In this document: one piece after another, positions 35,010 to 36,490 of the stretch
Layout: each line of letters opens with the position of its first letter
How positions within the stretch are numbered: position 1 is the stretch's first letter
Assembly: GCA_964016885.1 (NCBI GenBank)
Contig: OZ024740.1
Coordinates: 73,036,001-73,100,000, forward strand
Length of the DNA: 64,000 bases
Direction of reading: 5' to 3'
Source: Eledone cirrhosa
Taxonomy: Eukaryota
Made by a program: the position numbers and the translations under genes
Notes under the pieces: generated by a model
Databases searched by the model: none
What the model was told of the DNA's origin: nothing
The model's input: only the letters and a program-made list of their open reading frames with translations

Positions 35010-35370
35010 AATTAGGTAGTGACATGTTCTTATGCCGTATTTTACTAAATAGAATTAGTCTGTTAGTTGGGATTTTTTAAAAACTCTCCGAATGAAAGAA
35101 AAAGGATGAGTATTGACGTACATGGGACACGAACCCACATCTTTGGTTTGCCAGACCAATGTGTTACCATTACACCAACACACCGCCCATGCTTCCTTCC
35201 ATTCAATTAGAAGTAATATTACCATAGCAGGTATATATATGTATATAAATAGACACAAAGCAGGCTTTGTTTACAAACGGCTACGGTTATTTTAAAATCC
35301 AAACTAACAGACATTCTATTTAGACAAATACGGCATAAGCACATGCTACTACCTAATTTTCAAATTCGTA
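35010..35370. mobile_element. Fold-back element family C (contains tRNA-like sequence); copies at 35913-36128 and ~27660-27760
   Basis: Arms aattaggtagt..gttagttgggatttt / aaaatccaaactaac..actacctaatt. Confidence 0.75.
35114..35184 (-). tRNA. tRNA-like cloverleaf, anticodon GGC (probably pseudogene or element head)
   Basis: ggtgtgt-tg-gtgt-aatggta-acac-a-ttggt-ctGGCaa-accaa-agat-gtggg-ttcgtgt-cccat-gtacgtc-a; D, anticodon and T stems pair; acceptor stem has four G-T pairs; T-loop lacks A58. Confidence 0.6.
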
Positions 35371-35434
35371 TATATATATATATGCGTGTGCGCCTGCGCG
35401 TGTGCGTGTGTATGTGTTTATAATAATAATAATA

Positions 35435-35614
35435 ATAATTGTTTCTACTTTTGGCACAAGGCCAGCAATTACCCAGTGCATTACTGGTACTTTATTTTAT
35501 CGACCCCGGAAGGATGAAAGGCAAAGTTAACCTCGGCGAGATTTGAACTCAGAATAGCAAGGGCCGTAACTCTATGCGTCAAAGCATGGCGTCCGACCCT
35601 CTACCGATAGTGCC
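35435..35614 (-). mobile_element. Young SINE
   Basis: Matches window consensus, (AAT)n tail. Confidence 0.9.
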
Positions 35615-35619
35615 ATGAT

Positions 35620-35900
35620 GATAAGGAGCAGGAACTTAGTATCAATATAAAATCATATTTATAAGCTCAAGGTACGATCGGTAGTGATCGGGCCTGGCTA
35701 TGGAATCGATAGTTCATCAGAGGAGTTGTGGATTTCTTGATAATTCCATTCATTCGAAACTCCACAAGTCTGATGTGGATCGATGCCGGAGTTGGTCTGG
35801 ATCACTATCGATTGTACCTTGAGCTCATCCATCGCAAAATGTGCGTCACGTGTGAATAAACATAATGATATTATATTGATACTTCATTCCTGCTCCTTAT
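35620..35900. repeat. Long imperfect fold-back element
   Basis: Three nested complementary blocks, e.g. ataaggagcaggaa/ttcctgctccttat and gctcaaggtacgatcg/cgattgtaccttgagc. Confidence 0.7.
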
Positions 35901-36490
35901 ATATATATATATAAAATTAGGTAGTAAGATGTGCTTACGCCGTATTTAACTAAATAAAATGTGTCTGTTAGTTGGGATTTAAGAAAAAAATACCTCTGAG
36001 GGTTTTTCTTTTAATCCCAACTAACAGATTAATTCTATTTAGTCAAATACGGCGTAAGCACATCTTACTACCTAATTTTCAAATTCGCTAGCCGTTTGTA
36101 AACAAAGCCTGCTTTGTGTCTCCCTATTTACACACACACACACACACACACACACACACACACACACACACATATATATATATATATATATATATATATA
36201 TATATATATATATATATATATATATATATATATATATATATATATATATATATATATGTGTGTGTGTGTGTGTGTGTGTGTAGATAAATCTACCAAAATA
36301 TACGGTAGTGTCCAATCCGTATGAAGAACTCAATGTAATCCAAATATAGAAGATATCATGAAAAGAGAAGATTCATTAAAAAATGTTCGATAAAAATCAT
36401 AGGAAAACAGAGTCAAGATAAATTAATAAAAACAAATACTAAATAAACCATAACAAACCGCCATCTCATTAACTATAACAAGTCCTGTAA

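Follow-up and report, generated by a model that had tools for sequence, protein, structure and literature searches.

Introduction

PLE insertions have been described, in the sections of Craig et al. (PMC8557442) that deal with their structure, as showing 5' truncation, partial tandems and an inverted 5' copy, together with a one-sided tail of 30-40 bp and (TA)n targets. Among the short elements that have been linked to PLEs, animal non-LTR retrozymes are non-coding units of 170-400 nt found as monomers and tandems and proposed to be PLE passengers (PMC7229834; 10.64898/2026.07.22.740005), often sharing pLTR sequence and having a type I hammerhead as the defining feature. The non-autonomous Chlamys PLEs (MRC1) are algal, form pLTR-like partial tandems and generally share 3' sequence with autonomous partners; most Chlamys elements are without hammerheads, and the portions of PMC8557442 that treat them do not mention a tRNA mimic.

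Genes for small RNAs are also found inside other short retroelements. Schistosoma SM-alpha and Sj-alpha, according to the relevant passages of PMC6765202, are tandem short SINE-like retroelements with a Pol III promoter and an active hammerhead. Helenus and Cassandra TRIMs, according to the part of PMC10886601 that covers them, are non-autonomous elements of the LTR class, with a PBS, a PPT and fixed TSDs, whose repeat contains the mimic of a small-RNA gene. The tRNA-derived SINEs, as defined in SINEBase (PMC3531059, definition section), are short, non-coding, tRNA-related and present in high copy number. Identity to a host tRNA of 60% or more is expected of them.

Here, we analysed a 64-kb stretch of the Eledone cirrhosa genome (the window) and searched the 3.0-Gb genome (1,796 contigs) with a tRNA-bearing repeat found in it. 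The original prediction, made from the letters of the window, had seen a tRNA-like cloverleaf joined to a fold-back repeat body and suggested a tRNA-headed, SINE-like element using the PLE route.

Results

The 71-nt cloverleaf with anticodon GGC (35114-35184, minus strand) is the sole tRNA found in the window by ARAGORN and was confirmed by Rfam RF00005 (score 56.7 bits, gathering score 29, E 3.5e-11), in whose alignment all stem positions are standard or G-U pairs. It joins the repeat body at this locus, as predicted, through a 38-nt trailer, and the two fold-backs were also borne out, at 35010-35368 and 35913-36136. However, the region 35010-36128, taken before as one element, holds two independent insertions, A and B, with an abundant unrelated repeat (35440-35615) and a separate fold-back (35621-35900) between them. 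That repeat is SINE-like and very abundant, with more than 20 matches in the window, and the fold-back insert is unrelated to the family studied here. The window further contains 3' fragments of non-LTR retrotransposon frames (7836-8570, 8901-9647 and 32313-33326, with zf-RVT matches for two of them) and a 5.1-kb minisatellite of 135 copies of a 38-bp unit (20491-25627).

Both insertions belong to a subfamily that we call S1, whose 285-bp non-coding unit consists of a 47-nt leader, the 71-nt mimic, a trailer, the body, an extension and a TA-rich tail. In insertion A the unit is circularly permuted, in the order extension, TA-rich tail, leader, tRNA, trailer and body; the main arm (35010..35298, minus strand) is one complete permuted unit running from unit position 217 to 219 of the next unit at 91% identity, and its 3' end faces (TA)n at 35010, in line with the predicted (TA)n setting. 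The inverted arm of insertion A (35285..35368, plus strand) is a 5'-truncated, 84-nt piece covering unit 145-229. In insertion B, the inverted arm (35913..35987, minus strand, unit 147-221) ends at the short 3' end and the main arm (35995..36136, plus strand, unit 139-278) includes the extension and is truncated before the tRNA. The extension had been called constant, but it is found on one arm only, at 36078-36122, with a second occurrence inside insertion A at about 35251-35298. The third partial copy (27663-27752, minus strand) stood as a diverged family member, 77% alike to S1 over unit 119-212 and starting at the first base after the tRNA, while the tRNA itself is absent from it. Together with one other genomic locus, it points to more diverged tRNA-mimic subfamilies beyond the three described below.

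The junction of tRNA and body is a property of the family and not of this locus. The body lies directly behind the tRNA in 28 of the 29 other loci retrieved with the tRNA (29/30 with the window's own) and in 29/29 loci with the exact T-arm pattern, three of which are common to both sets, and 24 of 29 S1 loci retrieved with the body extend into the tRNA. This genome-wide joining, which the original prediction had expected, rules out a chance insertion of a tRNA. Neither of the outcomes named there as speaking against the idea, joining at a single locus and the fixed TIRs of a DNA transposon, was found: the inverted arms are variable in length and missing in about half of the loci.

The genome contains at least 1,164 candidates by the tRNA query and at least 1,612 by the body query. 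Copies of S1 average 92% identity to their consensus, and two sister subfamilies were recognised, S2 (260 bp, ~77% identical to S1) and S3 (271 bp); S1 is the older, with 92% identity to consensus against ~97% for S2 and S3. In a sample of 799,800 bases taken as 80 stretches at fixed intervals, family insertions were present in 7 stretches, with S1 accounting for one, which scales to a total of ~26,000 family insertions (95% interval 10,500-54,000) and ~3,700 S1 insertions (95-20,900). The 0.8 Mb of random DNA gave matches from the tRNA-mimic family only. Three runs from one sample contain the family, mostly with A58, an occurrence that has no bearing on expression.

The way in which copies begin and end follows a consistent pattern. 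In 25 of 29 tRNA-anchored S1 copies the 3' end falls at unit 215-221 or 273-285, and the 5' ends are scattered from -244 to +34. An inverted 5'-truncated arm is present in 16/29 S1, 12/29 S2 and 15/29 S3 loci, and arms crossing the unit junction, that is, partial tandems, in 6/29, 5/29 and 3/29, respectively. The inverted arm stops at 214-221, without a tail, in 12 of the 16 S1 fold-backs, and the main arms, which in this comparison had been selected for having the tail, at 271-285; the one-sided tail of S1 (~50-65 nt) exceeds the published 30-40 bp. A TA run occurs in at least one flank of 78/87 loci against 11.6% of random 30-mers, a count inflated by the TA-rich tail of S1 itself. Direct repeats of at least 7 nt flank 3/87 loci (0.93 in shuffled pairs, maximum 5), giving no TSD signal in a test that is blind to TSDs of 4-5 bp. 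Tandem S1 units have seamless junctions, and some share non-consensus bases while others share none, leaving both a circle and a tandem as candidate templates for the unit RNA. Our results support the view that the layout of S1-S3 is that of PLE insertions; it also matches the PLE description in the pertinent part of PMC8969392, and the insertion layout of a PLE-like family neighbouring the locus is similar.

The leader and trailer are predicted to pair as a helix of 19-21 bp that prolongs the acceptor stem and includes a T-run. In the window, the strands of this 21-bp helix lie at 35185..35205 (leader) and 35089..35111 (trailer), and the T-run, a Pol III terminator-like signal, at 35099-35103 within the trailer strand, all on the minus strand. 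On the tRNA-sense strand, helix and cloverleaf together contain 7 G-U and 0 A-C pairs in S1, 9 and 0 in S2, and 7 and 1 in S3, counts that are not independent because the subfamilies are related. Natural copies fold better than shuffles, with z of -2.5 and -4.1 for sense and -1.6 for antisense; the minimum-energy fold differs from the cloverleaf, which comes from the covariance model.

This cloverleaf is not that of a decoding tRNA. The Ala anticodon read from it carries no decoding meaning: the loop (35148-35154, minus strand) is a family trait, CCGGCAA in 26/58 and CTGGCAA in 12/58 S1 copies, and differs in S2 and S3, both of which have T at position 37. Judged from these sequences, U33 of the window copy looks like a product of CpG decay. 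Alanine tRNAs have G3:U70, and a functional tRNA-Ala gene would be expected to have U33, a stable anticodon, G3:U70 and A58. In the S1 mimic, pair 3:70 is C:G, and base 58, at 35129 in the T-loop (35127-35133, minus strand), is T; exact matches across S1 gave 40 T, 1 G and 0 A, and a master copy of S1 bearing A58 had 0 exact matches in the genome. The unstable loop, C3:G70, T58 and the differing sister loops rule out a functional tRNA-Ala(GGC) gene. The D arm of the mimic matches host tRNA-Gln genes (51 matches) and the remainder does not, and identity is 40/72 to host tRNA-Gln and 38/73 to a Thr-like gene, the two tRNAs compared. Elsewhere in the genome, Thr-like tRNA copies occur in tandem clusters with varying anticodons. 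Another tRNA mimic, with an S1-like CCGGCAA loop showing CpG decay and a similar T arm, is found in a separate element that is at least 1.7 kb long, starts with a fixed hairpin and contains internal inverted repeats; the resemblance is due to shared ancestry or convergence.

Nor does the mimic act as the head of the element, and the description as a tRNA-headed SINE could not be maintained. The tRNA is internal, preceded in S1 by the 47-nt leader and then by the previous unit. Copies rarely start at it: 2/29 tRNA-anchored S1 copies start within 5 nt of G1, and these 29 copies show no pile-up of 5' ends at G1, the trace expected from cleavage by RNase P or from initiation by Pol III; among S3 arms passing base 58, 5/14 end at about -9 to +3 of G1. 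The A-box is intact in S1, S2 and S3 and the B-box in S2 and S3. Each of the three subfamilies also has a run of T5-6 ~10 nt after the tRNA, where Pol III transcription begun at the mimic should terminate without reaching the body. Given T58 and the T-run, S1 appears to have no intact internal Pol III promoter for the full element, and since it spread without the B-box A58, the canonical Pol III promoter appears dispensable. The role of the mimic may possibly lie in RNA stability or processing, or it may be an ancestral promoter.

Base 58 also separates the subfamilies by where their copies stop. We compared loci retrieved with the body only, using one arm per locus and excluding query loci, the loci being best-scoring matches and not random copies. 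Arms stop in bases 59-73 in 2/24 S1, 18/27 S2 and 15/29 S3 loci (Fisher p 3e-5 for S1 against S2, 1e-3 against S3 and 2e-5 against both pooled, 33/56), although the three subfamilies amount to one A58-to-T58 contrast, S2 and S3 keeping A58 and S1 having T58. S1, S2 and S3 have the same 13 bases 3' of the T-loop, so that local microhomology is controlled for. Pieces of S2/S3 type in the interval sample mostly begin at the break point too. In second arms, from loci chosen for a full-length copy, there was no difference (S1 1/8, S2 3/19). The break ends fall 3' of base 58 at a distance of 2-16 nt, 17/33 of them at +5 or +6; 0/33 arms end at base 59 (+1), and positions -10 to 0 are free of ends. 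Copies that pass base 58 show no excess misincorporation there, with 3 non-A bases against 6 changes at base 59 in the first 100 of 1,479 matches. Short palindromes or AT microhomology mark the junctions, consistent with trimming of stalled ends.

A PLE-like copy, 5'-truncated and outside the element, lies next to insertion B (36282..37910, plus strand), with an inverted 5' piece (36282-36456), a GIY-YIG-like frame (36491-36961) and a hammerhead remnant (37703-37829) whose core lacks one base. Its family has 63,381 candidate matches in the genome, a weak GIY-YIG match (E 0.035) and hammerhead pattern matches with a stem II of ~100-115 nt; Pfam and PDB returned nothing for its 594-aa frame, and we take it to be a PLE partly on sequence motifs. 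The proposed PLE-style tail of the tRNA-bearing repeat is supported by position and not by homology, the extension being unmatched in the PLE 3' regions compared. No significant shared sequence was found between S1 and 29 loci of the neighbouring family (best E 0.27), nor between S1 and 14 hammerhead-bearing families by BLAST and local alignment; the lowest uncorrected p in the 28 tests of the partner search was 0.04-0.05. One apparent partner match proved to be an S1 copy within the compared locus, and a short motif common to S1 and the neighbouring 3' end, seen by eye, was unsupported by shuffles. The PLE partnership is thus inferred from the layout.

A hammerhead CUGANGA core is found on neither strand of S1 or S2, in a scan that recovered dozens in 0.8 Mb of random DNA, and Rfam reports only the tRNA, with no hammerhead or other ribozyme, in the S1, S2 and S3 loci. 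Rfam miRNA matches at the locus were below gathering scores and reflect the fold-backs. Hammerhead-free Naiads are described as long dead in cephalopods, so that the young S2 and S3 are more likely to have a hammerhead-bearing PLE as their partner. At least 14 repeat families with the hammerhead pattern are dense in the genome, many with two 3' ends 60-140 nt apart. Flanks of S3 abut the 3' end of one hammerhead family in 5/58 cases against 49/2,674 random TA flanks (p 0.005, post hoc; 1/116 in the S1 comparison), a weak hint of a partner that applies to S3 only.

Discussion

In this work we describe a joined, multi-copy unit with clear polarity, inversions, tandems, a tail on one arm, TA flanks and a break point linked to A58. 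The family is probably best understood as a non-coding unit that has an internal tRNA mimic and whose own RNA the RT/EN of a PLE copies into TA microsatellites. The tRNA-sense strand would be transcribed as an RNA longer than one unit, or circular, and the PLE enzyme would prime at an AT-rich nick and begin at either of two sites located 3' of the tRNA, with a second priming or a fold-back likely creating the inverted arm. About 60% of S2 and S3 copies would be halted by the folded T arm, which is most likely methylated at A58, and the halted end would then be trimmed to a nearby palindrome or AT microhomology, while S1, having changed base 58 to T, would read through. The fuller version of this scheme, in which the family are ribozyme-free passengers of PLEs and the tRNA machinery of the host acts on their RNA, with m1A58 blocking the RT and S1 escaping by the A58-to-T change, is tentative.

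The break point itself admits more than one cause, as methylation, an intact tRNA elbow and T-loop cleavage each predict dependence on A58. T-loop cleavage generates 3' tRNA fragments, and it is possible that a PLE-mobilised RNA owes its break either to such cleavage or to an intact elbow (the T54-A58 pair) stalling the RT. The 2-16 nt spacing of the ends, with none at +1 or from -10 to 0, and the lack of misincorporation at base 58 agree with this possibility, and T58 would weaken the elbow too; on the other hand, the T stem is identical in S1, S2 and S3, and the palindrome and AT junctions fit trimming. In addition, m1A is reported to truncate cDNA imprecisely, and TRMT6/61A to methylate GUUCRA T-loop mimics in non-tRNA (10.1101/202747, the parts on these two points). 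We prefer m1A58 as the putative cause of this specific step, and give it an even chance. S1, being older, may also have used another enzyme.

Readings that dispense with a PLE account for less of the data. It is unlikely that the family is a SINE of the classical tRNA-headed kind, with Pol III transcription from the tRNA and a LINE doing the copying: the boxes retained by the subfamilies and the short, interspersed, 5'-truncated copies agree with one, but the internal tRNA with so few starts near G1, the T5-6 run, T58 fixed in S1, inversions in about half of the loci, tandems, two 3' ends and the missing TSD signal have already largely refuted it. Inverted arms, hairpins, TA flanks and tandem units could also come from a non-autonomous DNA element (MITE or Helentron-associated) or a satellite with a captured tRNA gene, an improbable origin for arms that vary in length or are missing, for strict 5'/3' polarity, for a break point tied to a tRNA base and for a G-U bias on one strand. 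Solo or tandem LTRs of a tRNA-bearing miniature LTR element, a Helenus-like TRIM, are very improbable, as there are no fixed termini, 5' inversions are frequent and no internal PBS/PPT segment lies between the tandem units.

The PLE reading, if correct, has several consequences. Automated annotation would label such copies tRNA genes or unclassified SINEs. A natural substrate of 260-285 nt would be available for the unresolved PLE mechanism, including the inversions, the one-sided tail and the role of the hammerhead, and the A58/T58 subfamily pair is a ready test of tRNA modification limiting retrotransposition. If modification is indeed the cause, genome assemblies would record RNA modification braking transposition in thousands of break points.

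Among the top matches of the literature searches we found no description of a tRNA-bearing, hammerhead-free PLE passenger, although Repbase, Dfam and octopus libraries may hold the family. Ohshima and Okada (1994) reportedly described octopus SINEs and may have included it. The repeat library behind PMC13282606, in the part of that work describing it, has 893 unclassified SINE families, which may include the family as well.

Compared with the known systems, the family behaves like a non-LTR retrozyme in its small non-coding units, found as monomers and tandems with a proposed PLE partner, but S1 and S2 lack a hammerhead core, contain a tRNA mimic and have no detected shared pLTR sequence; it fails the hammerhead test and so is not a retrozyme. 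The word tRNA has 0 occurrences in the retrozyme preprint (10.64898/2026.07.22.740005). The family shares pLTR-like partial tandems with the non-autonomous Chlamys PLEs and, like most Chlamys elements, is without hammerheads, and it differs from them in its host, its mimic and the absence of detected 3' sequence in common with a partner. It resembles tRNA-derived SINEs in being short, non-coding, tRNA-related and of high copy number; by the definition of SINEBase (PMC3531059, as given in its relevant section) it is not a SINE, and in S1 the tRNA is not a 5' head, the T-run blocks the body and the insertion is of PLE type and not LINE type. Helenus and Cassandra have a comparable mimic inside their repeat, in LTR elements. 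SM-alpha is the nearest precedent in the sources consulted for a tandem retroelement that contains a Pol III unit, S1 differing in its complete cloverleaf and missing B-box A58 and the family in being without the active hammerhead. By definition, short retroelements that carry a tRNA depend on LINEs, Helenus being their counterpart among LTR elements, and a PLE-type family would add a third partnership.
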